From positions 50,921 through 114,920 of the forward strand of contig JAHLKU010000002.1 in assembly GCA_020444505.1 (NCBI GenBank): a DNA stretch of 64,000 bases, written 5' to 3'. This DNA is from Actinomycetota bacterium (GTDB taxonomy: Bacteria; Actinomycetota; Acidimicrobiia; Spongiisociales; UBA11373). Every line of letters starts with the position of its first letter. Within the stretch, counting starts at the first letter, position 1. The position numbers and the translations under genes are program-made. Shown here piece after piece: positions 3,250 to 26,228 of this stretch. Under the pieces are notes generated by a model. The model saw only the letters and a program-made list of their open reading frames with translations. It had not been told where the DNA came from and ran no database searches.

Positions 3250-5574
3250 CTACGACAACGCGATCACCATCGCCGTGCCGTCGATGCGGCGGGTGGGCAG
3301 CGCGCCGACCTCCTCGCCCTCGGCCAGTTCGAGGCGGACCTCCTCGATGCCCTGCAACTCGCCCTGGACGTCGGCGATGGCCAGCTGCTCCAGGATGCGG
3401 TGGCGCAGGATCGAGGTGAGGTGGCGGACACCGAAGCGCGGCTGCCACTGGTCCACCAGGTGATCGACGATGGCCGGGTCCCAGGTGAGCGTGTAGCCCT
3501 GCAACTCGGCGGCGCCCTCCAGGCCGTCGAGTTGCCGCTCCAGGATGACCCGGATGTCGTCCTGGTCGAGCGCCTCGAACACCACGAAGTCGATGTTGCG
3601 GCCCAGGAACTCCTCACGGAACCCGCGGCGCCGCAGGTCGTCCATCACGCTGTCGCGGGTCACCCGCGGCGTCCCCGACCCCGCCGTGTTCGCCTCCTGC
3701 CCCGGCGGGGCGAAGCCGATCGGCCCTCCGCCGGCCTCGTAGGTGGTGCCGGCGTTGGTGGTGAACACGATGAACGCCCGCCGGAAGTCGAGCAGGTTGT
3801 CGTCGGTGTCGTTGACCCGGCCCTCGTCGAGGATCTGCAGCAGCAGGTCGGCGATGGCCGGGTTGGCCTTCTCGATCTCGTCGAACAGGACCACGCACTC
3901 GGGCATGTCGCGGATCTTGGACAGCAGGCCGCCCTCGCCGCGGGCGTAGCCCAGGTAGCCGCGGGGCACGCCGAGCAACTGGTTGGCGATGACGCCCTTG
4001 GCGTCGATGCCGCGGCCGGCGATGGTGTTGCAGTCGATGCGGAGCAGCGCCTCCCGCCCCCCGCCGAGCAGCTTGGCGAGTTGCTTGGCGGTCTCGGTCT
4101 TGCCGACGCCGGTGGGCCCCCCGAAGAAGAAGATGCCCTGCGGCTCGCCCTTCTTGCCCCAGCCGGCGCTGAGGCCGGCGACGAACGACTCGGCGATCTT
4201 CCGCAGCGCCCCGTCCTGGCCCACGATCTTCGCCTGGAGATGCTCCAGCACCTTCTCGATGGTCAGCGCCTCGGGCCGCACCAGGCCGTGGCCGACGGCG
4301 TCCTCGAGCGCCTCCTGGATGGCGGCCTCGGTGAGCACGGTGGCCTCCGGGTCGTCGATGCTGGTGAGGGCGCACGCCTCGTCGAGGATCTGGATGGCCT
4401 TGTCGGGCTGGTACCGGGTGGGGAGGTGCTCGTCGGTGAGGTCGACGGCCTTCTCCAGCATCTCGTCGGGCACCGTGAGCGGGGCGTAGTGGGCCTCCAG
4501 CCGGGGGCGCCGCGCCTCCAGGATGCGGATGGTGGCCTCGCGCGACGGCGGGTCCACCTTCAGCACCCCGAAGCGCCGCTCCAGGGCGCGGTCGGGGGCG
4601 ATGTGGTGGCGGTACTCGGCGATCGTGGTGGCGCCGATGATGGTGATCGTGCCGCGGCCCAGCGCCTGCTTGAACGCTTCGTTGGCGTCGGAGAAGGCGG
4701 TGCGCTGGTGCATGCCGCTCGACAGCAGCGAGTGCACCTCGTCCACGAACATCAGCACCTTGGGGCTGGCCTCCAGCACCTTGATGAGCGCCGACACCCG
4801 CTTGTCGTACTCGCCGACGACGCCCGCGCCGGCCCGCAGGAACGACGGCGACAACTCGAACACGTCGCAGTCGCGCAGGCGGGGGTCGATGGTCTCGTCG
4901 CCGATGAGCAGGCGGCGGGCGAACTCCAGCACCAGGGCGGTCTTGCCGGTGCCGGGGTGGCCGGTGACGATCACGTTGCGCCGCTTCATCTTCAGCAGCG
5001 TCTTCTGCAGGCGGCGCAACTCCACGTCCATCTCGACCACCGACCCGGCGGGCGGCTCGCCCTCGGTGAGCATGCGGCCGTACGACGAGAGCGCTTCCAG
5101 GGCCTCGGCGCGCGCCCCCGACGACCGCCACTCGCCCGTCTCGGCGCCCCCGGCCTCCGCCGACGATGCCTTCGCGGCCGGCGGCCTGGGCGGCGCCTCG
5201 TGGCCGCGCACGACCTTGGCGGCCCGCTCGACGTACTTGGCCGGCAGCCCGGCGCCGACCAGGAAGCCCTTCCCGGCGTCGCTCTCCAGCAGCGCCGTCA
5301 TCAGCTCGTCGATGGTGACGAAGTCGTCGGCGTCCAGCACCTCGAACACCGGCTCGAGCCCGGCGTCCACGTCCACCGAGTCGGGGACCTTCTTGCGGCG
5401 GGTCTTGAGGTCCTCCATGTAGGTCGCGAGCTCGGGGATCGACGAGGACATCTCGCCGACCGCGTACGCCGCCGCCATCAGGACGTCGGCGGTGAGCTTG
5501 CCGTCCTCGCCGACGAAGCGTTTGGCGAGGTCGACGGCCTCCCGGGCCTCCGGTGAGAAGTGGTCGAATGCCAT
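3250..5574 (-). CDS. ClpA/ClpC-like double AAA+ ATPase (Clp_N-like N-terminal domain, two nucleotide-binding domains, IGF loop)
   Basis: Start at MAFDHF, which is Met23 of the 796-aa ORF. D1 has Walker A GHPGTGKT and Walker B FVDEVH. D2 has GGPTGVGKTE and VVLFDEIEKA. A GPIGFAPPG loop resembles the ClpP-docking IGF/IGL loop. Confidence 0.85.
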   Translation of the reverse strand: MAFDHFSPEAREAVDLAKRFVGEDGKLTADVLMAAAYAVGEMSSSIPELATYMEDLKTRRKKVPDSVDVDAGLEPVFEVLDADDFVTIDELMTALLESDAGKGFLVGAGLPAKYVERAAKVVRGHEAPPRPPAAKASSAEAGGAETGEWRSSGARAEALEALSSYGRMLTEGEPPAGSVVEMDVELRRLQKTLLKMKRRNVIVTGHPGTGKTALVLEFARRLLIGDETIDPRLRDCDVFELSPSFLRAGAGVVGEYDKRVSALIKVLEASPKVLMFVDEVHSLLSSGMHQRTAFSDANEAFKQALGRGTITIIGATTIAEYRHHIAPDRALERRFGVLKVDPPSREATIRILEARRPRLEAHYAPLTVPDEMLEKAVDLTDEHLPTRYQPDKAIQILDEACALTSIDDPEATVLTEAAIQEALEDAVGHGLVRPEALTIEKVLEHLQAKIVGQDGALRKIAESFVAGLSAGWGKKGEPQGIFFFGGPTGVGKTETAKQLAKLLGGGREALLRIDCNTIAGRGIDAKGVIANQLLGVPRGYLGYARGEGGLLSKIRDMPECVVLFDEIEKANPAIADLLLQILDEGRVNDTDDNLLDFRRAFIVFTTNAGTTYEAGGGPIGFAPPGQEANTAGSGTPRVTRDSVMDDLRRRGFREEFLGRNIDFVVFEALDQDDIRVILERQLDGLEGAAELQGYTLTWDPAIVDHLVDQWQPRFGVRHLTSILRHRILEQLAIADVQGELQGIEEVRLELAEGEEVGALPTRRIDGTAMVIALS

Positions 5575-5682: not shown

Positions 5683-7404
5683 CTACGGCCGGGAACCACC
5701 CGGTTCGCCGGTCCGGATCACCCGGTACCCGGCCCGTGCCAGCAGCTGGGGCACCGACCGGGCGGCGAGGCGGTCCAGGTCCTTGATCTCCTCGGCCTCC
5801 GGCCCGGTGAGCCGGTCCCACGGCACCAGGTAGGGGCTCGTCTTCTTTTCGGGGTCGCGGGGGCCGTCCTTCCACCCGTCGCTGCGCCGCTGCCGCACGA
5901 ACCGCTCGTGCTCGAAGCGGGCGAGCTCCTCGATCTCGTCGTCGGTGAGCGGCTCCGGCGGCGCGTCCCAATCGTCCAGCGGGGCCACCCCGCACCCGAT
6001 CCGGCGCAGCTTCTCGCCGAGATGGGCTGCCTGCGCCCGGTTGGAGCGCCGCAGGCTCTCGGGGAGGTGCTCCCACGCCATCAGGGACGGGTCGTCCGGT
6101 CGGGCACCGGTGGACAGGCGCAGGTCCACGTAGGCGGCGTGGATCTCCCTGGCGAGCCGCTCGCCGAGGCCGGCGAGGAGGATGTCGGCGTGCAGCAGCC
6201 GGTCGGGGATGAGGAAGGGGTGGATCGCCCTGGTGCCCGACGCGCCGGAGGTGAGCATCGCCGCCATCCCGGCCCAGTGGCCGAGTGCCACCACGATCGG
6301 CGTGCCCGGCAGTTGCTCGGCCAGCGACAGGGTGATGGCGATCGCCGTGGTGTCCTCGTCGAGGCACACGAACACCAGGCGGCACGACGCCAGCCGCTCG
6401 ACGTCGGCGGGCACGAGCGGGTCGGGGCCGCCGATGCGCTCCACCTCGGCGCCGGCGCGCAGTTGCGGGAACCGGGCGTGGAGGCGCTCGACGACGCCCT
6501 CCTCCTCGGCGATGACCACGCGCACCGGGTCGCGAGCGTGGCGGCGGCGCACCCGGGCGGCCTCCGACACCACGGCGGCGGCCACGTCGTTGCCCCCGAC
6601 CACGCCGATCGCGGCCGGGCCGTCCCCGGCCAGGAACCCGGCGTGCTCCTCCAGCATGATGGCCGCCGCCTCCTCGGCGACGTTGAAGAACTCGAGGCGG
6701 AATCCCTCCGCCTGTGGGCCGGCGAGCGTCTCGGTGCGCAGGATGCGGCACAACTGCGGGTCGCGGATGTGGGCCAGGCACACCACCGGGTTCTCGGCCG
6801 ACTCCAGGTAGACGGTGCGGGCGGCGAGCGCCACCTCGGCGCTGACCTCGTCGGCGCCGGCCAGCACCACGATGTGGTCCGCCGCCTCGGCGCGGGCCTC
6901 CCGCAGCACGTCGGGGTCCCTGGCGTCCCCGACCACCACCGACACCTTCGACCGCCCGATCGAGGCGACGGCCTCCTCGTCGAGGTCCAGGTCGACGGCC
7001 ACGACGTCGTGGCCCTGTTCCACCAGGCGCTCGACCAGTTCCAGGCCCAGCCAGCCGAGGCCGGCCACCACCACGTGGCCGCTGCGGCGCTTGAGGCGCC
7101 AGCGATCGATGCGCGACCGGAAGATCTCCACCAGGGCCCGCCCCAGGGCGTAGGCGGTGGCGGCGGGGGCGGCGAACCGGGCGATCTCGAGTGTGATCGG
7201 CGGCGACGGGCCGGCCGCGTTCCCGGATTCGACGGTGAACAACTGCAGCGACAGGTAGGCGATGTCCACGGCCGAGCGCTCGCTGCCGAGCCGTGTGTGG
7301 AAGCCCAGGTACCCGAGCACGAAGGCGGTGGCCGCCAGCAGGGCGACGAGGGGCCACCCCATCAGCCTCCGCATCCAGCGCACCCGATTCCCGGTCCCGG
7401 CCAT
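5683..7404 (-). CDS. 2TM cation-channel pore + tandem RCK/TrkA-N domains + C-terminal RyR domain protein
   Basis: 573 aa. TM1 is WPLVALLAATAFVLGYLGF. A pore-helix and filter-like segment AYLSLQLFTVESGNAAGPSP is NaK/CNG-like rather than GYG-containing. A TM2 follows, then Rossmann motifs VVVAGLGWLGLE and IGVVGGNDV. The C-terminal block is LRRSNRAQAAHLGEKL...EHERFVRQRRSDGWKDGPRDPEKKTSPYLVPWDRL, matching the RyR repeat (RyR domain, PF02026). Confidence 0.8.
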   Translation of the reverse strand: MAGTGNRVRWMRRLMGWPLVALLAATAFVLGYLGFHTRLGSERSAVDIAYLSLQLFTVESGNAAGPSPPITLEIARFAAPAATAYALGRALVEIFRSRIDRWRLKRRSGHVVVAGLGWLGLELVERLVEQGHDVVAVDLDLDEEAVASIGRSKVSVVVGDARDPDVLREARAEAADHIVVLAGADEVSAEVALAARTVYLESAENPVVCLAHIRDPQLCRILRTETLAGPQAEGFRLEFFNVAEEAAAIMLEEHAGFLAGDGPAAIGVVGGNDVAAAVVSEAARVRRRHARDPVRVVIAEEEGVVERLHARFPQLRAGAEVERIGGPDPLVPADVERLASCRLVFVCLDEDTTAIAITLSLAEQLPGTPIVVALGHWAGMAAMLTSGASGTRAIHPFLIPDRLLHADILLAGLGERLAREIHAAYVDLRLSTGARPDDPSLMAWEHLPESLRRSNRAQAAHLGEKLRRIGCGVAPLDDWDAPPEPLTDDEIEELARFEHERFVRQRRSDGWKDGPRDPEKKTSPYLVPWDRLTGPEAEEIKDLDRLAARSVPQLLARAGYRVIRTGEPGGSRP

Positions 7405-7517
7405 GCTCCCCGCGTCCCGTCGCGTTCTGTCAGGCTAGAGAAACGCGAGGGGCCGATGGCCTCTGGACGCCGATGGCTCCCGCCGGGGAGCATGGGCGGG
7501 CAGAGCGGGGAGGACCG
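7405..7517. promoter_or_regulatory. shared divergent promoter region between the two RyR-domain genes
   Basis: 113-bp gap between the divergent starts. A GGAGGA RBS sits 5 nt before ATG 7518. Confidence 0.4.
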
Positions 7518-10001
7518 ATGACGGAGCCGTGCAGCAGGCCGTGGCTCGAAGGCCAGGTGACGGAGTACGCCCGTCTGTACCCGATCTACGAGCGGTACGG
7601 GCGGGTGCTCGAAGACGTGCTGCGGGCGGCGGCACGGCGGCATGCGCCGCTCGCCATCGTCCAGACCAGGGCCAAGAAGGTGCCGTCGTTCGCCGAGAAG
7701 TGCCTCCGGAAATGCCACAAGTACCCGATGCCGGCCCATCAACTGACCGACCTGTGCGGCGCCCGCCTCATCGCCAGGACGGCGTCGGAGGTGAAGGCGG
7801 TCCGTGCGTTCCTGCACGAGCACCTGGAGATCGACTGGGAGAACAGCGACGACGTCTCGGAGCGGCTCTCGTGGTCGGAGTTCGGCTACCGCTCGATCCA
7901 CTACGTGGTGGCGCTGCGCCGGGGCGACGGCCTGGTGGACGTGGACGACGACCTGTACGGCTTCACCTGCGAGTCCCCGGAGTGCCCCGGCGTGGGGACG
8001 TTCCACCCCTTCAAGGCCGAGATCCAGGTGCGGACGCTGGCGGAGCACGCCTGGGCCGACTTCGCCCACGACATCACCTACAAGGGCGCGTTCACCCTGC
8101 CCGACACCTGGCTGCGGGAGATCGCCCTGATGGCCGCCGACCTCGAGGACGTCGACCGCACCGTGGAGCGGATCGAGGAGGGCCTGCGCACCTACGCGGC
8201 GTCGTACGGCGCCTACCTCTCGCCCGACGACCTCGCCGCCGAGATCGAGACGCTGTCCACCGTGCTCTCCTTCGACCCGGGTAACGCCGATCTCGCCTGG
8301 CGCATCGGCAAACTGGCGATGACGGCCGGCGATTGGGACCGGGCGGTCGAGGTGATGGGCCCGTTCGTGGACCCCGACGCCCCGGGCGATGCGATGCAAC
8401 CACTGCTGCGGGACCTGGGGGTGGCGTTGCGCAAGGCGGGCGACGTGGCCCTGGGCAGGAGGTACCTGGAGGCCGCGGTGGAGGCCGATCCCACCGACGC
8501 CGACGCCGTCGCCTCGCTGGCCGGCACCTGGCGGGGTGAGGACGACGACCGGGCCCACGACCTGTACCGCAGGGCGTTCGAGGTGGACCCCACCGACTAC
8601 TACCCGCTGCTCAACTACGTGGACGGCGAGATCGAGCGCTCGGGGACCACCGGGGTCCTCGACGTGCTGGCCCCGATGGCGTCGCAGGCCATGGCGCGGT
8701 GCCGCGCCCACGTGGACGTGGGCATCAACGTGCCGTGGTCGCTGTCGTCGCTCGCCAAGTTCCACCTGCTGCTCGGCGACCCGTTCGCCGCACTGGAGTG
8801 GTACGCGCTGGCGATCCGCTCCGCACCGGCGGCGTTCGCCATCCCCGGCCTGGATCGCATCCGCGGCGCCGGGATCGAGGGCCTGGAGTGGTCCGACCGG
8901 TTGCTGACGCTGGCCGCCGCGGCGCGCTTCGGCGACGAGGCGGCGCTGGAGCGCGTGCGGGCGCTGGCCACGCCGGGCGCCGACCCCCTGGAGGGCCCGG
9001 TGACGATCTTCGCCGGCGGCACCGACCCGGCGTTCGCCGAGCAGATGGAGGGCTACCGCTCGCTGGTGGAGGAGGCCGTCGCCGGCCTGTCGGGCACCGT
9101 CGTCTCGGGCGGCACCCGCCAGGGCGTGTGCGGGATGGTGGGCGCGGCCGGCGTGCCCCACCGGGGACGGGTCCGCACGGTGGGCTACCTGCCGTCCGGC
9201 GTCCCGGAGGACGCCGACCCGGACGACCGCTACGACGAGATCCGGGAGACCGCCGGGCAGGGGTTCACGCCGCTCGACCCGCTGCAGAACTGGATCGACG
9301 TGGTGGCCTCGGGCATCGACCCGGCGGAGGTGATCGTGGTGGGCCTCGGCGGCGGGCGGATCGCCGCCGCCGAGTACCGCATCGCGCTGGCGCTCGGGGC
9401 CACGGTCGGCATCGTGGAGGGGAGCGGGCGGGAGGCCTCGCGCCTGCTGGCCGACCCCCGTTGGAAGGACGCGCCCACGCTGGTGCCGCTGCCGGCCGAC
9501 CCCCACACGGTGCGGGCCTTCGTCACCCGGCCCACCGCGGCCCTGTCCGACGGCGACCGCGAAGCGGTGGCGCGGGGCATGCACGACGTGTACCGCCGGG
9601 ACATCGCCGCAGCGGCCGCCGACGACCCGGCCCGGCGCCCGTGGGAGGCCCTCTCGGACGACCTCCGGCAGAGCAACCTGCACCAGGCAGACCACATCGG
9701 CGCCAAGGTGGCCGAGGTCGGCTGCCGGGTGGTGGCGGCCGCCGACGCCGACCCCGGTTTCGAGTTCACCGCCGCCGAGGTGGAGCGGCTGTCCGAGATG
9801 GAGCACGGCCGGTGGACCGCCGACCGGCTTCGCTCCGGATGGCGGTGGGGCCCCGAGCGCGACCCGGGCGCCCGGCGGAGCCCCCACCTGGTGCCGTGGT
9901 CCCGCCTCCCCGACGACATCCGCGAGTACGACCGGGCGTTCGTGCGCCGCATCCCCGCACTGCTCGGCACGGTCGGCCTCGGCGTGGCCCGGGAGGGCTA
10001 G
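7518..10001 (+). CDS. multidomain protein: N-terminal RelA/SpoT-type nucleotidyltransferase (alarmone synthetase) - TPR-like repeats - SLOG/LOG-like Rossmann domain - C-terminal RyR domain
   Basis: Start is Met76 of track ORF 7293..10001, after a GGAGGA RBS. All RelA_SpoT synthetase motifs are intact: RAKKVPSFAEK, DLCGARLIAR, GYRSIHYVV and EIQVRTLAEHAWADFAHDITYK. The SLOG/LOG-like motifs are SGGTRQGVCGMVGAAG and VGLGGGRIAAAEY. The C-terminal block LRQSNLHQADHIGAKV...EHGRWTADRLRSGWRWGPERDPGARRSPHLVPWSRL is homologous to the C-terminus of the divergent neighbour. Confidence 0.85.
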   Translation: MTEPCSRPWLEGQVTEYARLYPIYERYGRVLEDVLRAAARRHAPLAIVQTRAKKVPSFAEKCLRKCHKYPMPAHQLTDLCGARLIARTASEVKAVRAFLHEHLEIDWENSDDVSERLSWSEFGYRSIHYVVALRRGDGLVDVDDDLYGFTCESPECPGVGTFHPFKAEIQVRTLAEHAWADFAHDITYKGAFTLPDTWLREIALMAADLEDVDRTVERIEEGLRTYAASYGAYLSPDDLAAEIETLSTVLSFDPGNADLAWRIGKLAMTAGDWDRAVEVMGPFVDPDAPGDAMQPLLRDLGVALRKAGDVALGRRYLEAAVEADPTDADAVASLAGTWRGEDDDRAHDLYRRAFEVDPTDYYPLLNYVDGEIERSGTTGVLDVLAPMASQAMARCRAHVDVGINVPWSLSSLAKFHLLLGDPFAALEWYALAIRSAPAAFAIPGLDRIRGAGIEGLEWSDRLLTLAAAARFGDEAALERVRALATPGADPLEGPVTIFAGGTDPAFAEQMEGYRSLVEEAVAGLSGTVVSGGTRQGVCGMVGAAGVPHRGRVRTVGYLPSGVPEDADPDDRYDEIRETAGQGFTPLDPLQNWIDVVASGIDPAEVIVVGLGGGRIAAAEYRIALALGATVGIVEGSGREASRLLADPRWKDAPTLVPLPADPHTVRAFVTRPTAALSDGDREAVARGMHDVYRRDIAAAAADDPARRPWEALSDDLRQSNLHQADHIGAKVAEVGCRVVAAADADPGFEFTAAEVERLSEMEHGRWTADRLRSGWRWGPERDPGARRSPHLVPWSRLPDDIREYDRAFVRRIPALLGTVGLGVAREG

Positions 10002-10003
10002 CG

Positions 10004-10360
10004 ATGGAAGACGAGACGACGATCATGTTCTTCTCCTACGACCTGGTGAGCAAGTTCGGGTTCGGGGACGGGGACATGCTGTGGGACCTCATCGAGGAGC
10101 GCGATCTCGGGGTCGACCACCACGACCTCTTGATCGCGGTGGTCGAGCGCCTGCTGGTGCCGAGGCTCGATGAGGAGGTGGAGACCTACACGATCGGGGC
10201 GACCCTCCACAACCCGATCCGGGCCAGGACGGTGGACGGCGAGGAGGCCGGCGCCTCCTCGGTGTTCACCCCGGAATCGGTGGGCATCGCCGTCGACGAC
10301 ATCCTCGCGATCGCCGCCGAGCTGCCCCGTGTGGAGCCGGACCCGGACGAGTGGGCATGA
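10004..10360 (+). CDS. small acidic hypothetical protein (118 aa)
   Basis: ATG 3 nt after the upstream stop. Strong GC3 bias. The product MEDETTIMFFSYDLVSKFGFGDGDMLWDLIEERD... is very acidic. Confidence 0.7.
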   Translation: MEDETTIMFFSYDLVSKFGFGDGDMLWDLIEERDLGVDHHDLLIAVVERLLVPRLDEEVETYTIGATLHNPIRARTVDGEEAGASSVFTPESVGIAVDDILAIAAELPRVEPDPDEWA

Positions 10361-10680
10361 CCGCCGACTGGGGCGCCTTCTACCGGGCGGTGTGCGCCTC
10401 GGCGGGGTCGCTGCTCACCGGCCTCGACGACGAGGCCCGGGAGGCGATCGCCGAGGCTGCGGGAGCCTTCGACGTCTTCTGGTCGGTTTCGATGCTCGAC
10501 ACGTTCACCGACTTCGCTCCGGAGAGCACTCGCACCGGCGTGGAGTTGGCCCTCGAGGTGTGGAGGGAGAACGTGCTGGAGGCGTTCGGCGACCTGCTCG
10601 ATCTGGACCCGGCGGCGGTGGGCATCGACCCGCGTGCGATCGGGCCGCTCGTGGCGGCTGCCGAGGGGGAGGACGGCTAG
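10357..10680 (+). CDS. small acidic hypothetical protein (107 aa)
   Basis: ATGA overlap with the upstream stop, implying translational coupling. Strong GC3 bias. Product is MTADWGAFYRAVCASAG... Confidence 0.7.
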   Translation: MTADWGAFYRAVCASAGSLLTGLDDEAREAIAEAAGAFDVFWSVSMLDTFTDFAPESTRTGVELALEVWRENVLEAFGDLLDLDPAAVGIDPRAIGPLVAAAEGEDG

Positions 10681-10690
10681 GGTCGCCGCC

Positions 10691-11179
10691 ATGCGCAGCC
10701 CGCTCGAACAGCGAGTGATCGGCCACCTCGATGCGCTCGGGGCCCGGTACGAGGTGCTGGACTGCGACCCCGCCCTGGCCGACACCGCCGCGTTCTGCGA
10801 GCACTACGGCTACGGCCTCGACGTGTCGGCCAACGCCATCGTCATCGCCTCCCGCCGCCCGCCGGGGGAGGTGTGCGTGTGCCTGGGCCTGGCGACCACG
10901 AGGCTGGACGTGAACCGCCGGGTGAAGGGCTTGATGGGCGTCTCCAAGCTGTCGTTCGCCCCGGCGGAGGCCACCGTGGAGGCCACCGGCATGGAGATCG
11001 GCGGGGTGACGCCGTTCGGCCTCCCCGACGGCCTGCCGGTGTACGTGGACGCCCGCATCCCGGCGCTGGAGCAGTGCATCGTTGGCGGCGGCAGCCGGGC
11101 GATCAAGCTGCTGGTGGACCCCGAGGTGTTCACCCGGATGCCGGGCGTCGAGGTGGTCGAGGGCCTGGCAACGGAGTAG
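10691..11179 (+). CDS. ybaK: YbaK/ProX-family aminoacyl-tRNA deacylase (Cys-tRNA(Pro) deacylase-like)
   Basis: Start at Met20 (MRSPLEQRV) of the track ORF. Carries the YbaK/EbsC-type motifs ...SANAIVIASRRP...GGVTPFGLP. Confidence 0.75.
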   Translation: MRSPLEQRVIGHLDALGARYEVLDCDPALADTAAFCEHYGYGLDVSANAIVIASRRPPGEVCVCLGLATTRLDVNRRVKGLMGVSKLSFAPAEATVEATGMEIGGVTPFGLPDGLPVYVDARIPALEQCIVGGGSRAIKLLVDPEVFTRMPGVEVVEGLATE

Positions 11180-18295: not shown

Positions 18296-18435
18296 GAGAG
18301 ACCTTCCTGCGGATCTCCTGCGACTGGGTGAGCCCGGGTGGGGTGCTGCCGGTGATGCCGAGCGTGTGGTCGGCGGCGACTGTGATCCGGAGCCGCAGGA
18401 GCCGATTTCCTACTGCAGCACCCGTGTGGGCCGTG

Positions 18436-18600
18436 CTATTTGTCGATGATGAGCAGTGCAGCGGTTGCCAGGGCGCCGACCGCCAGGATCTTGTCCGCAC
18501 CACCGAAGGTAAAGACCTCGAACAACATCAGTGCCCAGAACACCAGGACCACGGCCAGGGCTTGTTGCCAGAACCTTGGTTTGCCCAGTTTGAACTTCAT
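18436..18600 (-). CDS. small hydrophobic protein (54 aa, about 2 TM); absent from the ORF track (<60 aa)
   Basis: ATG preceded by a GGGAG RBS. Product is MKFKLGKPRFWQQALAVVLVFWALMLFEVFTFGGADKILAVGALATAALLIIDK. It lies in the lower-GC segment. Confidence 0.45.
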   Translation of the reverse strand: MKFKLGKPRFWQQALAVVLVFWALMLFEVFTFGGADKILAVGALATAALLIIDK

Positions 18601-18618
18601 GGGATCTCCCGCCCGTGC

Positions 18619-18789
18619 CTAGTCGAATACGCCAAAGATGCTGAGTCCGCCGAGCAGGATCCCGATGATGATGAGCACCACTCCCAGCATCATCTTGCGC
18701 CGGTACAAATAGACGGCCCCGGCGATGAGGCACACCACGCCGATGGCAATGCTGACTGTCATGGCGACCGCTGCGAGGATCACAGGCAT
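18619..18789 (-). CDS. small hydrophobic protein (56 aa, 2 TM); absent from the ORF track
   Basis: ATG preceded by an AAGGAG RBS at 6-nt spacing. Product is MPVILAAVAMTVSIAIGVVCLIAGAVYLYRRKMMLGVVLIIIGILLGGLSIFGVFD. Confidence 0.5.
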   Translation of the reverse strand: MPVILAAVAMTVSIAIGVVCLIAGAVYLYRRKMMLGVVLIIIGILLGGLSIFGVFD

Positions 18790-19007
18790 TTCGCACTCCT
18801 TGCTCTACGAGTGACAGTAGCCGTCCGGTGGCCACAGCGTCGGGGCCGTGCCGCCTTTGCCCGCAGTCCGCCCGACAAGGGGGGATGGGAATCGCCGGCA
18901 GGATTCGGCCTTGGGATGTGGAGATGGTCGTCTCGTCGGATCGAAGGCCGGTGGACGGCCTCCGCCCTGTGGCCTACATTGCTCATGCGGATGCAAGGAG
19001 GGCTTTT

Positions 19008-19418
19008 ATGAGCGACCGCGAGTCCGACAACGGACACCTTGAGGAAACCGGCCCGGCCCCGGAGGCGCCGGCCCCAGATGTGACAGGGTCGGGTCAGCCG
19101 GGGCTGTCCCCCTCTCCCAGACCGGAGCCCGCCGAGGTGGAGGTCCGTCGGGTCTTCGTCGGCACCGGCGTCTTCTGGGGATTGGCGATCGCGGTACTCC
19201 TGACGGTTGCCGTGATCATCCTCGCCGCCCAGAACACCCAGCAGATCACACTCGAGTTTCTTTCCTTCGAGATCGACACCCCTCTGATCGTGGTGCTGCT
19301 CGTCGCGCTGCTGATCGGCGTCGTCCTGGACGAGATCTTCGGCTGGGTCTATCGGGCTCGGCGGCGCCGCACACTCACCGACAGGGAAGAATTGAAGCAG
19401 TTGCGAGCCGACCGCTAA
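19008..19418 (+). CDS. LapA-domain (DUF1049) membrane protein
   Basis: Start Met61 (MSDRESD) after a GGAGGG RBS. A TM is followed by QNTQQITLEFLSFEIDTPLIVVLLVALLIGVVLD, which is LapA-like. Confidence 0.6.
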   Translation: MSDRESDNGHLEETGPAPEAPAPDVTGSGQPGLSPSPRPEPAEVEVRRVFVGTGVFWGLAIAVLLTVAVIILAAQNTQQITLEFLSFEIDTPLIVVLLVALLIGVVLDEIFGWVYRARRRRTLTDREELKQLRADR

Positions 19419-19802
19419 CGGAACACCCAGCAGGGAACAACGATCCGCTCTGAGCCTTCCAATTGTGGCGGGACTCCGCAGGGCCTTCATCCCTATCGTC
19501 GTTAACCCTCACCTCCTGGCCGACGATGGCGAAGACAGCGGGCAATCCGGGGCGCACGTGGGAGGCTCGTCCCGCGCCGGTACCCCCGCCTCCCGTTCCA
19601 GAAGCCCAGGCGGCATCAAACGATCGCGAATCGGAATGGGACCGCAGACCCAGCCGACTCCTGACCGGAGTTCTGAAGAGACTCCTGAGGAACCTTCCCA
19701 GGGGCCTCGGGTTGTTTTGGTGAGTCCGTGTCCCGGAAGGTCTGGCCGCGGAACGGCACCAGTGAGTGGCGTCGCCGCTCCGGGCGGTGTGTGTTCGACG
19801 AC

Positions 19803-21140
19803 TCAATCGATCGATTGATTGCTCAGGTCAGACGTCGCTGACTCGAAACGATCGCGGTGAGCAGATCGAACTCGCTCGTGATCTAGCGCGGGTAGATCAG
19901 CCATCTCGCTGACCTCAAGGGCTAGATCGGCTTGACTCCGCAACGCAGCCGTCGCTTCGTCGCCATTCGCAGCCGAAGCGATCGACGTCGTGAGCAGGTG
20001 CAGGATCTCGAGGAGGTAGATCTGCACGGTAGGCATCCCTGCCGATGCCAAGCGGATCTCGTCGAACGCCAATCCCACGATCTCGGCATGCGTCCAGGCT
20101 CGTGGTATCAGAAGTTCACGGCCCTCCTCGCCAGAGAGATGACGAGTGGGAACGTTTCTGACGAGCAGTTCCCGAAGGACCGCTCCCAAGTGGAACATCG
20201 CGTCCTGGGCCGTTGTCGGGTCGTTGATGCCCGGCGAGAGTGCTTTCAGTGCCACGTCGGCAAGCTGACGCAAGCCGTAGGTGACATCGCCCTGAGCGGT
20301 CCGAGTCTGTCCGACTCCGATGGCATGACGGACTCGACGCTCGACCACGTCCGGATCAGATGGCGTCGGCACGATCCGGCACAACGGCGTCGCCACGATC
20401 GCGTACCGGCCGGCGACGGTATCGAGCCACATCGTCGCGCCGGGTTCGAGCGCCCTGAGAAGGGCACTGTGATCGACCTGTTGCACCCACCCGCTCCGTT
20501 CGAAGGTGACCACGAAGGCGTCGTCCGGCGCAGTCTCGCCGGTGGATTCCTCCCGTGCAGCATCAGTGTCGCTGCCCTCTCCCCACTGGGCCGACACCTC
20601 AGCGATCGCCGCCTCGGTGACGCCATGCAGGATCTTCGAGATGTCCATCGAGTGAGCGGCGTGGCTGATGAAGGCAACGATCGCGAGGATCGTGGTGATA
20701 CCGAGGAGCAACGCCACCGCAATCGAGAGACTGGGGATGACGGCCTCCCCACCGCCATCGAGAGGACTGCGCACAGCGCGCAGCACGACGAGGCAGTAGG
20801 TGAACGTCCCGATCACCACGCCCATGACGCGCTTGTTGAATGGGTCGCGGAAGAGTCCGTGGACGACACGGGGTGAGTACTGACTCGAGGACAGCGAGAT
20901 CAGCAAGAGGCTTACGGAGAACGCGATGCCGGCGAACGCGATCGTGGCGCCGGCGATCACCCCCAACACGGCTCGGGCGCTGTCCACCGTCGCCGTCAGG
21001 CCGGTCGGGATGTTCGTGACTTGCTGATCAGCCCACAGGAACAGTTGGCCTAGTCCCAAGCCGACCATCGTGAGGATCATCGGCGTGTAGAACAGACTGC
21101 TCTTCAACTTCTCCCGGATGGACCTCAGCCGAGTGATCAT
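19803..21140 (-). CDS. DUF2254-like integral membrane protein
   Basis: 445 aa with N-terminal TMs and a large C-terminal domain. A perfect palindrome CAATCGATCGATTG overlaps its stop codon. Confidence 0.75.
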   Translation of the reverse strand: MITRLRSIREKLKSSLFYTPMILTMVGLGLGQLFLWADQQVTNIPTGLTATVDSARAVLGVIAGATIAFAGIAFSVSLLLISLSSSQYSPRVVHGLFRDPFNKRVMGVVIGTFTYCLVVLRAVRSPLDGGGEAVIPSLSIAVALLLGITTILAIVAFISHAAHSMDISKILHGVTEAAIAEVSAQWGEGSDTDAAREESTGETAPDDAFVVTFERSGWVQQVDHSALLRALEPGATMWLDTVAGRYAIVATPLCRIVPTPSDPDVVERRVRHAIGVGQTRTAQGDVTYGLRQLADVALKALSPGINDPTTAQDAMFHLGAVLRELLVRNVPTRHLSGEEGRELLIPRAWTHAEIVGLAFDEIRLASAGMPTVQIYLLEILHLLTTSIASAANGDEATAALRSQADLALEVSEMADLPALDHERVRSAHRDRFESATSDLSNQSID

Positions 21141-21542
21141 GCGCCGGTCTGCTCTCTCTTGGTGTGGCGAGATCGCGCCGCTGTCTGACCCTACCTACCG
21201 GTCCTCGTATCCGCGGCCGTCCGGATACCCCGTTCACATGAACGGATTCTTTCATCGGCGCACCACACGGCAATCCGGACGAGCAGATCTGCCCCCACAA
21301 CCGTTGGCTGGGTGATGGCCGACTTCGGTGGCGCCGACCAGCTGGAGGGGACGCATAGGGGGTTCGAAAGAGAGCGACTGCGTTGGGTGGGAGCGGTGGC
21401 CCTGACCTGGCCTCTGACCTTCGGCAACGTTGCTGCACTCACAACGAGTGAGCCTGAAGGGACTCTGAGACCGCGTACGGCCACAAGGGCCGCGTTATCC
21501 AGAAGGCAACCTGAACGCGATGTCCGGAACGGCCAACTCTTG

Positions 21543-21565
21543 ACAGGGGCCCCGAAGCACCTCTG
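21543..21565 (+). repeat. island repeat copy 2 (ACAGGGGCCCCGAAGCACCTCTG, variant)
   Basis: Lies in the 547-bp non-coding stretch 21141..21687. Confidence 0.5.
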
Positions 21566-21687
21566 CGGAAGCTTCGCTGTCGATGGCGAGGGGTCTGTCG
21601 CCGGGGATGTTGCCGTGAATGTCGAGGGATCGGTCCGGGGCGACTCGTATGTCGGATCGGAGCGAACTGTGCTGCTCGTTCTCCCAG

Positions 21688-22632
21688 TCATCGGCTCCCT
21701 GATTGAAGCGGTGGGCTCGCACAACGGAATCCCAAGTTATTCAACTGAGTCTCGCGAGGATTCCTGAGGCGGAATGCACAACGCACGTTGCGGCGCGTGC
21801 CCATCCAGGAACCACCGCGCATCACCTTGAATCGCCGCCCGAAGTTCTCGTGTTCTGCCTGGCTGCCGGGGTACGCGTCATACCAGGAGTCACACCACTC
21901 CCACACATTGCCCGCCATGTCCAACAAGCCGTGAGGACTGGCGCCAGCGGGGAACTCGCCGACAGCCGTCGTACGGACTGATTGGAGCAGAGTGTCGTTC
22001 TCAGCCCACCATTCCTGCCACTGGCTCACCTTCAGCATTTCGCTCGTGGTGAGACGTTCGGCGCAATTGAGCCGTTCCTGATCCCACGCGTCACCCCATG
22101 GGTACCGGCGCCCATCCTCACCCCGGGCGCCCTTCTCCCACTGCTCCTCGCTGGGCAGCGCCTTGCCGACCCAACGGCTATAGGCGTGTGCGTCATCCCA
22201 GCTCACCAGCACCACCGGGTGATCCAGCAACGTCTCCGGAGGACGACGGCTCTGTTCGTCCCAGTTGTACGGTTCGGCCCCCGGTTCGTCCACTACCGGG
22301 ACTGGATGGTCCGGATTCGCAGCCAGGAACCGAACGTACTCATCGTGCGTCACCGGCACCACATCGAGGTAGAAGTCAGGCAACGTCTCTTGACGCTGGG
22401 GGGTTTCTGCCATCGCCCAAGGCAATGACCACTCGTACTCATCGACCATTTGCCTGGCGTCGGCCTCTGTCGTCCCCATGATGAATGCGCCGGCCGGGAT
22501 CAAGGCCATCTCTCTGCGGTCTTCTGCCCAGACGATGCGCGGTGGCAGCTCCGCGGCACCCTGCAACTGCTCCCATGATTCGATCAGTGGCAATCCCCGG
22601 TCACTCACCTGCCACTGCGCGCTCTCGCTCAT
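21688..22632 (-). CDS. formylglycine-generating enzyme (FGE-sulfatase/SUMF1) domain protein
   Basis: Start MSESAQWQ, which is Met307 of the 620-aa track ORF, after an AAGGCAGGA RBS. Motifs IPAGAFIMG, RGGSW and GFRC. The upstream 306 codons are non-coding-like. Confidence 0.8.
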   Translation of the reverse strand: MSESAQWQVSDRGLPLIESWEQLQGAAELPPRIVWAEDRREMALIPAGAFIMGTTEADARQMVDEYEWSLPWAMAETPQRQETLPDFYLDVVPVTHDEYVRFLAANPDHPVPVVDEPGAEPYNWDEQSRRPPETLLDHPVVLVSWDDAHAYSRWVGKALPSEEQWEKGARGEDGRRYPWGDAWDQERLNCAERLTTSEMLKVSQWQEWWAENDTLLQSVRTTAVGEFPAGASPHGLLDMAGNVWEWCDSWYDAYPGSQAEHENFGRRFKVMRGGSWMGTRRNVRCAFRLRNPRETQLNNLGFRCASPPLQSGSR

Positions 22633-22906
22633 TCCTGCCTTCTCTTTTCTCTGCCGGGCGGAGGCTGCAGCGAACTGATCGTGGTTGACCAACTGCCCGA
22701 TCCAGTTTCCGTGGGCGTCCTGTCGGAACTCCTCCGGATACGGTCGACGTATGCCAGGTTTCCTTCCGTTGGGTCGGCGTGACGAAATGTCCCCAGAGGA
22801 GATCCAATGGTAGGTGAGACGTCCTGGGATTCCCCGTGCCTGATCAGCGCCTACCCAACCGATCGGAGATTGGGTCGAGATGGAATGCAATGGCGGGAAG
22901 GTTTCT

Positions 22907-22927
22907 GTAGGGGTCCCGAGGGGCTGC
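22907..22927 (+). repeat. island repeat copy 3 (TGTAGGGGTCCCGAGGGGCTG)
   Basis: Lies in the divergent gap between the FGE and serine hydrolase genes. Confidence 0.55.
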
Positions 22928-22975
22928 CGACTCGTCTGCTCCAGTGGTCCCGGACTCGGACAGTAGGCTCGCCGG

Positions 22976-24139
22976 ATGCGATGGCTGCGCTGGATCCTGA
23001 TCACACTCGGGTCATTCCTCGCGCTCGGTGCGATCCTGATGGCGGCGTGGTCGATCGCAATCGGGCCTGCCGCAGTGTGGAGGGTCCTCACCCACGGTAC
23101 GACCACCGTCTGGGACCACCTCGAATATCCGGGCAGGGACCTCGAAGCTTCAGATTCCCCACGCCCGTGGACCGTCGACGAGGGTGCGGTGCCGGTGGTG
23201 TTGGTGGACGGCAGGGAGTTGCGGCTGCCCGAAGTCCTGGCCGAGCGCAATGCCCTCGCCTTTCTGGTCATTCGCGACGGCGTGATCGAGTACTCATGGG
23301 CAGCCCCGGGGCATTCGGTATCGACTCCATCGATGCTGTTCAGCATCACCAAGTCGGTGACATCTCTGATGATTGGGGCTGCGATCGAGGACGGTTTGAT
23401 CGGCTCCGTCGGCGACGCCGTCACCGTGTACCTCCCCGAATTGTCTACTCGTGGATTCGAGGATGTGACGATCGAGGATGCTCTGCAGATGGACACGGGT
23501 TCGATGTATGTCGAAGGCGACAACCCTTTCGGGATACACGTCGAGTTCAACTACACCGACCGTCTTGAGAGCCGGATCTTGGGCTTGGCGGCCGACGCCG
23601 AGCGTCGAGGTGAGTTCACGTACAAGTCCGGGGACAACGCGCTCCTGGGTCTGATCCTTCACCGGGCGGTGGAACCGGAGAGCATCTCGGAGTACTTGCA
23701 GCGGAGGCTGCTGAACCCGCTTGGGGTCGAAGACGGCGGCGTGTGGAGCACCGACCACGATGGGGGACTGGAGCGGACATGGTGCTGTCTGGCCTTGTCG
23801 GCTCGGGATCTGGCCCGGCTTGGCCAACTGATAGTCGACGGCGGCGTCAGTGGTGGTGCCCGCGTGATCTCACAGGGATGGCTCGATTCGTCCTTCGCCA
23901 CCCACTATGGACCCGAACGGTGGCCGTCAGAGTACGCCGAGACGTTGCTCGCCGACTACGGATACCAGTGGTGGTTGCTGAACGACGGTTCGGTGCTCGC
24001 GCTCGGCAAGGACGGCCAATACCTCTACGTCGACACTGCGCGTCGGCTTGTGCTTGTGCGCACAGGCACGTCGCAAGGCGGAATCGGGTGGCTCGACGTT
24101 CTCCGGCAGATCGCCGAGGCCTATCCAGTCATCGACTAG
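22976..24139 (+). CDS. beta-lactamase-related serine hydrolase (class C/PBP4-like esterase)
   Basis: 387 aa. An N-terminal TM is followed by the S-x-x-K motif FSITKSVTS and a C-terminal ...GWLDVL pattern. Confidence 0.85.
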   Translation: MRWLRWILITLGSFLALGAILMAAWSIAIGPAAVWRVLTHGTTTVWDHLEYPGRDLEASDSPRPWTVDEGAVPVVLVDGRELRLPEVLAERNALAFLVIRDGVIEYSWAAPGHSVSTPSMLFSITKSVTSLMIGAAIEDGLIGSVGDAVTVYLPELSTRGFEDVTIEDALQMDTGSMYVEGDNPFGIHVEFNYTDRLESRILGLAADAERRGEFTYKSGDNALLGLILHRAVEPESISEYLQRRLLNPLGVEDGGVWSTDHDGGLERTWCCLALSARDLARLGQLIVDGGVSGGARVISQGWLDSSFATHYGPERWPSEYAETLLADYGYQWWLLNDGSVLALGKDGQYLYVDTARRLVLVRTGTSQGGIGWLDVLRQIAEAYPVID

Positions 24140-24210
24140 GGATGCCCGCCCGGCGGGGGAGGAACGCTGTGGCCTTCGCAGGAGGGATCGAGGGAGAACG
24201 GGAGTCCTGT

Positions 24211-24242
24211 GAACTCCCGACAGGGGTCCCGAGGGGCCTCTG
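24211..24242 (+). repeat. island repeat copy 4 (GAACTCCCGACAGGGGTCCCGAGGGGCCTCTG)
   Basis: Lies between the convergent serine hydrolase and Fic genes. Confidence 0.6.
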
Positions 24243-24243
24243 A

Positions 24244-24271
24244 CCCCAGCCGACCTAGGTTGGGGCTGGGG
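24244..24271. terminator. hairpin CCCCAGCC-N12-GGCTGGGG spanning the Fic stop codon; candidate bidirectional terminator
   Basis: 8-bp perfect stem immediately 3' of repeat copy 4. Confidence 0.35.
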
Positions 24272-25418
24272 CGTCGTAGACGGCAGCCATGATCGATGCC
24301 GCTTGGTAGATGCGGTTCCGCGCTCGGCCGGTGATCTCTCTGAGATGGCCGAGTTCCTGGAGAGCCTCTATGGCCGCCTGCGCTGTGGGGAAGGTGACAT
24401 CCAGCATCCTGGCTACCTGCGGAGCTGTCACATACGGGCGATCGATCAGGCGTTCAGCAAGGCGAATCGTGGTCAATGTTGCACCGCCTTCCTGAAGGCC
24501 GACTCGCAAGTCCCGCTGGAGATCCACAAGGGCAACGGTCCGTTCCTCGGCGTCCCGGGCGTATGGCGCAACTCCCCTGAGGAAGTAGTCGAGCCACGCG
24601 AAGGGACTACCGCCGAAGCGTGTCTCATCCAGGCGCGCGTAGTACTCAGCGCGGTCTCGTTCGAAGTAGGCCGAGAGGTAGAGCACCGGAATCGAGAGGA
24701 CCCCCCTATCGATCAGCATCAGCGGGATCAGGAGTCGACCGATCCGCCCGTTCCCGTCAACGAAGGGGTGAATCGTCTCGAACTGGTAGTGAGCGAGTGC
24801 CACGGCGACGAGATTCGGAAGGTCTCGACCATGAATGAAGTGCTCCAGCGCACCAATCGCTCCCGGTACCTCGTCAGGCGGTGGTGGGACGAAGATTGCG
24901 TCGGCCAACAGGGTCCCGGGGGGTCCGATCCAGTTCTGCGTCGTCCTGAACTCACCAGGCAGGGCGTGCTCGCCGCGCACCCCTCGCATCAGGATGGCAT
25001 GGGTCTCCTTGATGAGGCGGCTGGAGAGAGGCAGGGTGGCTAGCCGGTCTTGGGCGTGTCGGAGCGCGTCCACATAGTTGAGGACTTCTTGCACGTCTTC
25101 GCGCCCCTCGACCTCCCCGCCCGCCTCGAGAAGGAGAAGGTCCCCGACCGTGGCCTGTGTGCCCTCGATTCGGCTACTCAGAACGGCTTCGAGTCGCACA
25201 TAGGGCCCAATCAGGATGTCAGCGGTTGGCAGCAGCCGACTGACCCCAGCTAGCCGATGTACGGCAGCGGTGGCTTCGGTCAGAAGGTTGACAGTGCTCT
25301 CTGGGTAGTCGAGCGTGACAGGCAGATCCGCAGGGTAGAAGGCGTCATAGCCGCCGGGGGCGCGTCGCAGCGTCCCGGGATTCCAGACACCGTCGTTGGC
25401 CGTCATGATCGCTGTCAA
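24255..25418 (-). CDS. Fic-family adenylyltransferase (class II, N-terminal auto-inhibitory helix)
   Basis: Fic motif HPFVDGNGRIGR. An inhibitory (S/T)xxxE(G/N) helix is present as SSRIEG. A wHTH-like C-terminus is also present. Confidence 0.9.
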   Translation of the reverse strand: MTAIMTANDGVWNPGTLRRAPGGYDAFYPADLPVTLDYPESTVNLLTEATAAVHRLAGVSRLLPTADILIGPYVRLEAVLSSRIEGTQATVGDLLLLEAGGEVEGREDVQEVLNYVDALRHAQDRLATLPLSSRLIKETHAILMRGVRGEHALPGEFRTTQNWIGPPGTLLADAIFVPPPPDEVPGAIGALEHFIHGRDLPNLVAVALAHYQFETIHPFVDGNGRIGRLLIPLMLIDRGVLSIPVLYLSAYFERDRAEYYARLDETRFGGSPFAWLDYFLRGVAPYARDAEERTVALVDLQRDLRVGLQEGGATLTTIRLAERLIDRPYVTAPQVARMLDVTFPTAQAAIEALQELGHLREITGRARNRIYQAASIMAAVYDAPAPT

Positions 25419-25562
25419 ACTCCGCGATAGTCGCCGTCTGGACTATTAAAGCACATCGGTGTTCGCTTTATTAACGAACCGGCGTGGTTGAGTCTGTCTT
25501 GATTGGACAGTTGGCTTCGACCGGGTCTCTGAGGGTTGGAGAGCCACCGCGAACTGAGCAGC

Positions 25563-25598
25563 GAACTCCCGACAGGGGTCCCGAGACACCCCGGTCTG
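25563..25598 (+). repeat. island repeat copy 5 (GAACTCCCGACAGGGGTCCCGAGACACCCCGGTCTG)
   Basis: Lies between the isochorismatase stop and the Fic start. A GCGAACT half-copy sits just upstream. Confidence 0.6.
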
Positions 25599-25618
25599 CC
25601 CGGGTGACAGGTGTCACA

Positions 25619-26152: not shown

Positions 26153-26228
26153 GCGGCGAGACTACCCGAACACACGTTCGGCCTCAATCGGAGTCGTCGA
26201 TTGCCTCCTCGATGTGGTCCGACACAGC

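Follow-up and report, generated by a model that had tools for sequence, protein, structure and literature searches.

We analysed a 64,000-nucleotide stretch of DNA from an Actinomycetota bacterium (GenBank assembly GCA_020444505.1, contig JAHLKU010000002.1, positions 50,921 to 114,920 of the forward strand; hereafter the window, numbered from its first letter), and in particular a gene encoding a RelA/SpoT homologue (RSH) synthetase domain followed by TPR repeats, a SLOG domain and a ryanodine receptor (RyR) module. This RSH-TPR-SLOG-RyR gene is real and intact, and it and its parts lie at the following positions (aa, amino acids).

7518..10001, + strand: RSH-TPR-SLOG-RyR gene, 827 aa, stop codon TAG at 9999-10001 (Pfam, family alignment and independent gene call)
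7518..8192, + strand: predicted RelA/SpoT (RelQ/RelP-like) pyrophosphokinase domain, aa 1-225
8193..8969, + strand: TPR solenoid, aa 226-484, with a sub-threshold likeness to the TPR-S family
8970..9533, + strand: LSDAT-type SLOG (Rossmannoid) domain, aa 485-672
9540..9998, + strand: C-terminal RyR (R12-like) module of 153 aa, aa 675-827

The reading frame is open on the + strand from a GTG at 7293 to 10001. A start at the ATG at 7518 is supported by an alignment of 29 homologues, the N-termini of which begin at this point, by an independent gene call on a Logan contig that yields an identical 827-aa product, and by a GGAGG at 7509-7513 upstream. G+C content at the third codon position (GC3) is 0.93, identifying 7518-10001 as the coding frame in a window of ~72% G+C, and a database protein is 100% identical to the product. 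A consensus scan for sigma-70 promoters and terminators, which is uninformative at ~72% GC, returned no match.

The four modules of the protein

An earlier note, made from the letters of the window, had proposed this domain order, with the catalytic motifs of the synthetase intact. Hidden Markov models (HMMs), family conservation and predicted structure agree on the RelA/SpoT synthetase, TPR, SLOG and RyR calls, and all the RelA/SpoT motifs and SLOG glycine motifs that it quoted proved to be present and invariant in the family alignment (29 full-length homologues, 44-75% identity, spanning bacteria and archaea), to which every statement of invariance below refers.

Pfam RelA_SpoT (PF04607) matches aa 50-190 (E=8e-15, 55.5 bits; gathering threshold (GA) 27) and, in scans of single homologues, 29/29 proteins. 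The ATP-binding R51-x-K53-x3-S57-x3-K61, the Mg-binding D78-x2-G81-x-R83, the G-loop G123-Y-R-(S)-x-H128, its serine being given in brackets, and the catalytic E168-I-Q-V-R-T173...H177...H184...Y188-K189 are all invariant, and the predicted structure of the domain has the RSH synthetase fold. By sequence the protein belongs to the RSH superfamily as a synthetase-only member of the small alarmone synthetase (SAS) type, with predicted pyrophosphokinase activity. A phmmer search of the PDB with the N-terminal 230 aa matched only SAS-type enzymes and returned no long RSH, CapRel, FaRel2 or Tas1. On the question of the acceptor, sequence favours RelQ/RelP, whilst the predicted fold matches CapRel equally well. 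Among PADLOC models, the candidate defence protein PDC-S33 likewise matches the N-terminal domain (E=7e-13).

Downstream of the synthetase, Pfam TPR_2 and TPR_19 match aa 243-335 above GA, TPR-S matches aa 272-367 below it (25.0 bits, GA 27.6), and LSDAT_prok (PF18171) matches aa 494-647, likewise below GA in the window protein itself (23.2 bits, GA 25.4). Scanning the homologues singly eased the doubt over these weak Pfam calls, LSDAT_prok matching 26/29 of them at E<1e-3 with a best E=4e-9. Within the SLOG domain the glycine motifs G531-G-T533, G536, G539 and G542 are invariant, as are G609, G612-G613, E619 and R621, and the predicted structure is a Rossmannoid fold with Gly-rich loops that resembles LOG, DprA, MoCo-carrier proteins and TRPM MHR1/2. 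All four modules are under similar purifying selection, with mean pairwise identities of 0.48-0.59. A role for the TPR region as a fast-evolving sensor of invaders was considered and rejected, since it is conserved as much as the enzyme.

The C-terminal module (aa 675-827) consists of a divergent repeat-like hairpin followed by a canonical RyR repeat. Pfam RyR (PF02026) matches aa 755-818 (42.8 bits, GA 27.4) and 29/29 homologues scanned singly, and a profile of the family picks up repeat-1/2 of animal RyR1/2/3 (E=6e-29 to 1e-19) as well as 3NRT, a bacterial protein labelled 'putative ryanodine receptor' (E=4e-14). We assign the window protein to the RyR/R12 family (PF02026) on this basis. E762-H763, R765, G774-W775 and D805-R806 are invariant and the position of W766 is aromatic throughout the family. 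PF02026 RyR/R12 domains bind or cleave 2'/3' cyclic ADP-ribose (cADPR) via H, W and D residues, which in the pocket of RyDEP are H75, W78 and D117, and most RyDEP homologues bind without cleaving (PMC13232231); this preprint covers phage proteins alone, phage RyR-domain sponges and glycosidases having been first reported in 2026. R12/RyR domains also bind ADP/ATP: RyR Repeat12 has two H-x-x-W motifs, and AMP-PCP/ADP stacks on their tryptophans (PMC12627627). The alignment places E-H763-G-R-W766 of the window protein at the RyR H-x-x-W motif, and D805 lies 42 residues after H763, a spacing equal to that from H75 to D117 in RyDEP; the counterpart of RyDEP H100 seems to be replaced (S788/H790 region), as judged by spacing alone. 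We predict that the RyR module is itself a nucleotide pocket, a feature that the earlier note had missed.

Distribution, neighbourhoods and the window locus

Searches of a protein database returned 586 relatives at E<=1e-5; nearly all of the best 120 are full-length proteins sharing this architecture, which sources name only 'RyR domain-containing protein' or 'ppGpp synthetase/RelA/SpoT-type nucleotidyltransferase'. Relatives occur in 192/185,579 species (one genome per species; ~0.1%), across at least eight bacterial phyla and at least four archaeal lineages. We fetched 80 loci, all from metagenome-assembled genomes (MAGs) and numbered L001 upwards. The bacterial loci come from Actinomycetota, Gemmatimonadota, Chloroflexota, Planctomycetota, Bacteroidales, Verrucomicrobiota, Pseudomonadota and others, and 10/80 are archaeal (L033, L039, L040, L042, L045, L052, L054, L060, L062 and L065; Bathyarchaeia, Halobacteriota, Methanobacterium, Methanomicrobia and Thermoplasmatota), some on contigs of 200-340 kb. 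Archaea are in themselves an unusual place for an RSH synthetase, and we know of no (p)ppGpp stringent response in them. Bacterial and archaeal copies are 40-50% identical which, with the 0.1% species frequency, points to horizontal spread under strong constraint. The fusion, which the earlier note could not map to a described family, is by homology a widespread uncharacterised family: our literature search found no account of the architecture, and full-text searches, which did not cover Burroughs et al. 2015, found no description of an RSH head or RyR tail on LSDAT/TPR-S proteins. RyR goes unmentioned in two reviews from the Aravind laboratory.

Open reading frames (ORFs) were called in the 80 loci and clustered when within 7 kb of the RSH gene, and neighbourhoods were counted over 78 loci; as the WD40 ORF cluster was partly repeat-driven, it was re-scored with N-terminal TIR and DUF4062 HMMs. 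Rather than an isolated oddity, the fusion proved to be part of a conserved family with recurrent partners. The commonest neighbour is a Nudix gene of ~140 aa (45/78 loci, mostly on the same strand and within 100 bp; Pfam NUDIX E=2e-23), which is paired with the RSH gene in 9/10 archaeal loci. MutT and NudG Nudix enzymes degrade (p)ppGpp (PMC5845004, PMC7593582), as does Bacillus NahA (PMC7584652). TIR genes occur in 21 loci and DUF4062 genes in 20, together covering 37/78 loci, or 21/36 of those with at least 5 kb on both flanks, and in 13 of the loci that carry them the gene lies within 300 bp of the RSH gene. Within 1 kb of the RSH gene there are 13.9 of them per 100 kb, versus 0.6-4.2 further out. 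By Pfam, the large neighbours are TIR_2+WD40 (E=6e-25) or DUF4062+NACHT/nSTAND1(+WD40) proteins. A Clp-like ATPase is present in 20/78 loci, usually (in 14) with a YbjN-like gene.

A second protein with an RyR module accompanies the RSH gene in 28/78 loci (HMM scores of 120-174 bits for the neighbouring modules). In 22/78 it is a channel-like TrkA_N-RyR protein adjoining the RSH gene, and in 6/78 an 879-aa protein with a C-terminal RyR module and an N-terminus of no recognised type. Three of the latter (L059:7838-10477, L063:7787-10429 and L070:7859-10498), the N-terminal 700 aa of which have no Pfam match, stand directly upstream of RSH-TPR-SLOG genes lacking the RyR tail, as if the module had moved to a separate partner. 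At L085:9515-10021 (- strand) a stand-alone 168-aa RyR-module protein is encoded convergently beside the RSH gene; it is the host's equivalent of the sponge/glycosidase format seen in phage RyDEP and could act as a buffer for the signal. In Gemmatimonadota, a ~350-aa protein without Pfam match is encoded near the RSH gene (L007:8117-9172, with homologues in L006, L013, L015 and L016), accompanied by a BtpA-like protein; to us its N-terminus (VFVIMPF...ADISG.NPNVFYELG) looks TIR/nucleoside-deoxyribosyltransferase-like in fold.

In the subclade to which the window gene belongs (62-74% identity), the cluster also includes TIR, DUF4062-STAND and Patatin genes. L083 (71% identity) has Patatin, Clp-like, YbjN, 75-aa and TrkA_N genes on one side and the RSH gene, a 112-aa gene and, further on, a DUF4062-nSTAND1/NACHT gene on the other, L085 (62%) has TIR, Clp-like and two YbjN genes opposite the RSH gene and its stand-alone RyR neighbour, and in L001 (72%) a TIR ORF lies 87 bp downstream. 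These fuller clusters indicate that the window holds a reduced version, the partners of which are listed below.

3250..5574, - strand: ClpA/ClpB-like double AAA+ ATPase, 774 aa from ATG 5574, frame open to 5640
5683..7404, - strand: channel-like partner gene, 573 aa (Pfam TrkA_N E=1e-19, RyR 32 bits)
7405..7517, no strand: divergent intergenic region of 113 bp between the channel-like gene and the RSH gene
10004..10360, + strand: small ORF 1, 118 aa, acidic, starting 2 nt past the RSH stop, with GGGAGGG at 9991-9997
10351/10357..10680, + strand: small ORF 2, 107-109 aa, acidic, ATG 10357 overlapping the ORF 1 stop as ATGA

The channel-like protein comprises a pore-like N-terminus with two predicted transmembrane helices, tandem RCK/TrkA_N domains and an RyR module, its last 153 residues being 41% identical to the RyR module of the RSH protein (E=2e-30). 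Its AlphaFold model (predicted local distance difference test (pLDDT) 83, predicted template modelling score (pTM) 0.75) places helices at 6-42, 45-54 and 70-94, then two Rossmann domains, then the RyR module, with the N-terminal helix/short helix/helix arrangement at pLDDT 60-79. The top Foldseek match is the full-length GsuK multi-ligand-gated K+ channel (E=5e-11, ~580 aligned columns), the matched entries 4gx1 and 4gx2 having been solved with ADP or NAD; further matches are TrkA, MthK and human RyR3 Repeat12, including its ATP complex. The ~150-aa RyR modules superpose on the whole R12 domain (~190 aligned columns, TMt 0.52-0.55), and in these models each appears to be a self-contained tandem. 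Between the two N-terminal helices the channel-like family conserves D-x-x-Y-x-S-L-Q-L-F-x-(V/L)-(E/Q)-S-G, presumably a pore-helix/filter signature of the MthK/NaK kind, one residue shorter than T-V-G-Y-G. The filter stretch T-V-E-S-G-N is non-canonical, and the second helix contains conserved Glu and Arg residues. Given this charged second helix and the lack of an Ion_trans_2 match in Pfam, we call the protein channel-like rather than a proven channel. The literature contained no description of an RyR-tagged RCK channel that our searches could find.

The ClpA/B-like ATPase has Pfam matches to AAA, AAA_lid_9, AAA_2 and ClpB_D2-small and sub-threshold NCBIfam matches to ClpB/ClpA/ClpV, and its length of 774 aa was also obtained by an independent gene call. 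As a correction, the first downstream small ORF starts outside the RSH gene, its ATG lying at 10004. Small ORF 2 has a GC3 of 0.93, and neither small ORF has a domain in Pfam, NCBIfam, PADLOC or PHROGs. Small ORF 1 has 62 homologues, mostly in Actinobacteria MAGs and in L003, L083, L086 and L087 near RSH, DUF4062-NACHT or RyR genes; small ORF 2 has 23 cluster representatives among 1.8 billion proteins, some of them repeat artefacts, and in L004 and L083 a homologue immediately follows the RSH gene. Both are confined to the closest actinobacterial relatives of the window gene, in variable order, which led us to reject the idea that they are family-wide antitoxins. At L087:180-5634 a small ORF 1 homologue stands beside genes for a DUF4062-NACHT-TPR protein and a 647-aa Castor/Pollux-like RCK channel protein, an arrangement suggesting that TIR-like STAND proteins and RCK channels are paired more widely in actinobacteria. 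A 40%-identical homologue at L088:6001-6369 lies in a long same-strand run of small genes (DUF2637, DUF6221), which has the look of an integrative element or prophage.

Beyond the cluster the window encodes an acyl-CoA synthetase, an enoyl-CoA hydratase, YbaK, TetR, SRPBCC, an AI-2E transporter, Ada/Ogt and a two-component system. The YbaK/aminoacyl-tRNA-editing-domain gene (10634-11179, + strand) has a predicted start that overlaps small ORF 2 by 47 nt and is probably unrelated, having no homologue in the 80 family loci; we note its proximity to a possible tRNA-modifying enzyme. Further downstream, 18300-26200 is a lower-GC island (63-65% vs 72-75% elsewhere) that may have been horizontally acquired and encodes the following.

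19803-21140, - strand: DUF2254 membrane protein
21688-23550, - strand: FGE-sulfatase-domain protein, 620 aa
22976-24139, + strand: beta-lactamase-like protein
24255-25418, - strand: Fic_N+Fic+HTH_13 protein

A proposed ligand-gated RSH effector and its alternatives

A synthetase under the control of nucleotide-binding domains, as the predicted activity and ligand binding would have it, fits all the findings. More specifically, the observed domain identities, conserved catalytic and pocket residues, folds, distribution and neighbourhood statistics lead us to propose, with about even confidence, that the protein is an RSH effector gated by an ADP-ribose (ADPR)-type signal in a Thoeris-like conflict (anti-phage) system. 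TIR or TIR-like (DUF4062)-NACHT-WD40 sensors would detect an invader and make an ADP-ribose-derived ligand, which would bind the SLOG and/or RyR pocket of the RSH protein and either relieve autoinhibition or drive TPR-mediated assembly. The RSH domain would then transfer pyrophosphate from ATP to the 3'-OH of GDP/GTP, ADP/ATP or the tRNA CCA end, leading to growth arrest. The RyR module on the GsuK-like channel protein could provide a second output of the same ligand, as ion flux, with the Clp-like ATPase and the two translationally coupled small proteins as putative accessory parts, whilst in most other lineages the abutting MutT/NudG-like Nudix enzyme probably removes either the product or the signal, thereby serving as antidote or resetting the system. 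The identity of the ligand, the direction of signalling, the reaction product and the role in defence are what we infer here.

Several points weigh against this proposal. The RSH domain is closest in sequence to the housekeeping enzymes RelQ/RelP, and none of the four modules is hypervariable. A LOG-like Glu/Arg pair persists in the SLOG domain, and the catalytic His/Asp pair of RyDEP in the RyR module, so that either could be an enzyme rather than a sensor, and the neighbouring Nudix protein is MutT/NudG-like, not ADPR-pyrophosphatase-like. HMM and tblastn searches of the 64-kb window found no TIR, DUF4062, Nudix, YbjN or Patatin gene, the signal source thus being one that would here be encoded elsewhere, and the genes on its flanks have ordinary roles in metabolism and regulation. 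The homologous loci are without exception from MAGs, and the case for the family is built throughout on sequence and predicted structure.

An unlikely alternative is a physiological, non-immune regulator, in which (p)ppGpp output would be tuned by ADPR, NAD(H) or ATP/ADP via SLOG and RyR and co-regulated with a nucleotide-gated cation channel in stress or ion homeostasis. Sequence kinship to RelQ/RelP, housekeeping flanks without TIR, the gating of GsuK-type RCK channels by NAD+/ADP (matched structures 4gx1, 4gx2) and the slow, even evolution of all domains are what one would expect of such a regulator. A species frequency of ~0.1% with 40-50% bacterial-archaeal identity speaks instead for horizontal spread and not for a core function, and the occurrence in archaeal lineages and the strong enrichment of TIR, DUF4062-NACHT-WD40 and Patatin genes nearby are hard to accommodate.

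The RSH domain could instead generate the signal, a diffusible 3'-pyrophosphorylated nucleotide such as (pp)pApp that the RyR modules receive, with the channel as effector, the Nudix enzyme degrading the messenger and TPR/SLOG sensing the trigger. This seems to us quite unlikely, given that the two ligand pockets of the RSH protein would be superfluous for a pure generator, that in the 50/78 loci without a second RyR protein RSH must be the output, and that the enriched neighbours are TIR-type generators; to our knowledge, RyR domains have never been shown to bind pyrophosphorylated nucleotides. The generator hypothesis draws on the recurrence of the RyR module on varied putative effectors beside the RSH gene (channel-like in 22 loci, 879-aa in 6, the 168-aa protein of L085), on the resemblance of the adjacent Nudix to (p)ppGpp-degrading MutT/NudG, on the window itself, where a candidate generator (RSH) and a candidate effector (channel) stand without a TIR, and on the capacity of RyR pockets to accept phosphate-bearing adenine nucleotides (PMC12627627).

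There is also a slim chance that the RyR modules are protein-protein docking domains coupling RSH to the channel-like protein and other partners, although in both the RSH and channel-like families the H-x-x-W and Asp that contact the ligand vary little or not at all, each module seems a self-contained tandem that superposes on the whole of R12, and most family members have no RyR-bearing neighbour. Such an adaptor is suggested by the specific relatedness of co-located modules (41% identity in the window, 120-174 bits across neighbours), by the homodimeric state of phage RyDEP (PMC13232231) and by the analogous logic of effector-associated-domain coupling (PMC7159879); being compatible with ligand binding, it does not exclude gating by an ADPR-type signal. 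A multi-enzyme converter processing nucleotides in series, with SLOG as a LOG-like N-glycosidase and/or RyR as a RyDEP-like cADPR glycosidase, is highly improbable, since the same residues are conserved in the non-catalytic R12, most RyDEP homologues bind their ligand but do not cleave it, the LSDAT-type SLOG domains of TRPM channels act by binding ligands, and no pathway logic joins glycosidase activities to the RSH domain.

If the protein is an ADPR-gated effector, TIR/cADPR-type bacterial immunity would gain a new effector class, the RelA/SpoT pyrophosphokinase, and a new sensor class, the host RyR/R12 module, and the carriage by phages of RyR-domain sponges and glycosidases would be explained. 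The protein would also be the first SAS controlled by dedicated small-molecule pockets, and a testable prokaryotic precedent for the regulation of channels by nucleotides via RyR-repeat and TRPM-type SLOG modules. We tentatively go further and propose a new defence family in which host-encoded RyR and LSDAT-SLOG pockets jointly receive TIR-made ADPR-type signals and drive two hitherto unknown outputs, the RSH pyrophosphokinase (poisoning through alarmones or tRNA) and an R12-gated, GsuK-like cation channel. Were this so, it would link NAD+-derived immune signalling to alarmone chemistry and provide both a prokaryotic forerunner of the RyR and TRPM2 channels regulated by ADPR/cADPR and the likely evolutionary source of the phage RyDEP sponges. 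With one gene and a Nudix gene in most lineages the family is compact, and it is highly conserved and directly testable in a heterologous host.

Comparison with known systems

RelQ/RelP (SAS1/SAS2; PDB 5DEC, 6FGK, 6EWZ) share the synthetase fold and all catalytic motifs with the RSH domain, are its best matches in sequence and structure and, like the window protein, have no HD hydrolase domain. They are, however, ~200-aa single-domain homotetramers just 20-26% identical to it, whereas the window protein has 600 extra residues (TPR, SLOG, RyR) and its family, unlike RelQ/RelP, sits in TIR/STAND/Nudix neighbourhoods. For the fused toxin-sensor CapRel (PDB 7ZTB), FaRel2 and Tas1, a sequence relationship to the window protein is undetectable by phmmer; the regulatory region of CapRel is a capsid-sensing pseudo-zinc-finger, in contrast to the predicted small-molecule pockets of the TPR-SLOG-RyR region. 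Toxic SASs (toxSAS, among them FaRel and PhRel) arrest growth by making ppGpp/ppApp and are neutralised by an alarmone hydrolase acting as a type IV antitoxin (PMC7229694). Other toxSAS enzymes reportedly pyrophosphorylate tRNA. They are small single-domain enzymes with an adjacent antitoxin, whereas the window protein has 827 aa and four modules.

With Thoeris, consisting of the TIR generator ThsB and the effector ThsA, which reportedly carries a SLOG domain (PMC7272460), the family shares a TIR-type enzyme beside an SLOG-bearing effector, in 37/78 loci. An adjacent TIR generator is present in the relatives L001, L083 and L085 and absent from the 64-kb window. Thoeris effectors are SIR2 or transmembrane/Macro proteins, and no SIR2 or Macro domain was matched by Pfam in the window protein, the predicted effector here being an RSH pyrophosphokinase. 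The SLOG domain is moreover of the LSDAT type, there is a second pocket (RyR), and the TIR-like proteins are fused to NACHT-WD40. As it lacks defining features of both groups, the window protein may be said to work like toxSAS/CapRel and Thoeris by analogy, not to be a member of either.

LSDAT and TPR-S were reportedly defined by Burroughs et al. in 2015 (NAR), and their pairing is said to be known from work of the Aravind laboratory and to be reflected in the Pfam family names. The nucleotide-centric LSDAT/TPR-S conflict systems (PF18171, PF20308) and the BcTir/BcTpr system have in common with our family the TPR-S-like repeats, an LSDAT SLOG and an association with TIR/Patatin, and a TIR + TPR operon with LSDAT/Patatin/YpsA variants gives anti-phage protection (bioRxiv 10.1101/2023.05.26.542521). 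The searchable literature on these systems, which did not extend to the 2015 definition paper, describes no N-terminal RelA/SpoT or C-terminal RyR domain.

Unlike GsuK/MthK, the window's channel-like protein carries an RyR module in addition, and its filter stretch is non-canonical. TRPM2, the LSDAT region of which binds ADPR (PMC13143021), combines LSDAT/MHR1-2, a channel and the Nudix domain NUDT9-H in one protein, whilst the components here are separate genes and there is no TRP pore. Phage RyDEP and animal RyR Repeat12 belong to the same domain family as the RyR module of the window protein, in which the H-x-x-W and Asp pocket residues are kept. RyDEP proteins are small phage-encoded anti-defence enzymes or sponges, whereas the module described here is encoded by the host and occurs both on an enzyme and on a channel-like protein, a setting that implies a sensing function for the defending cell.

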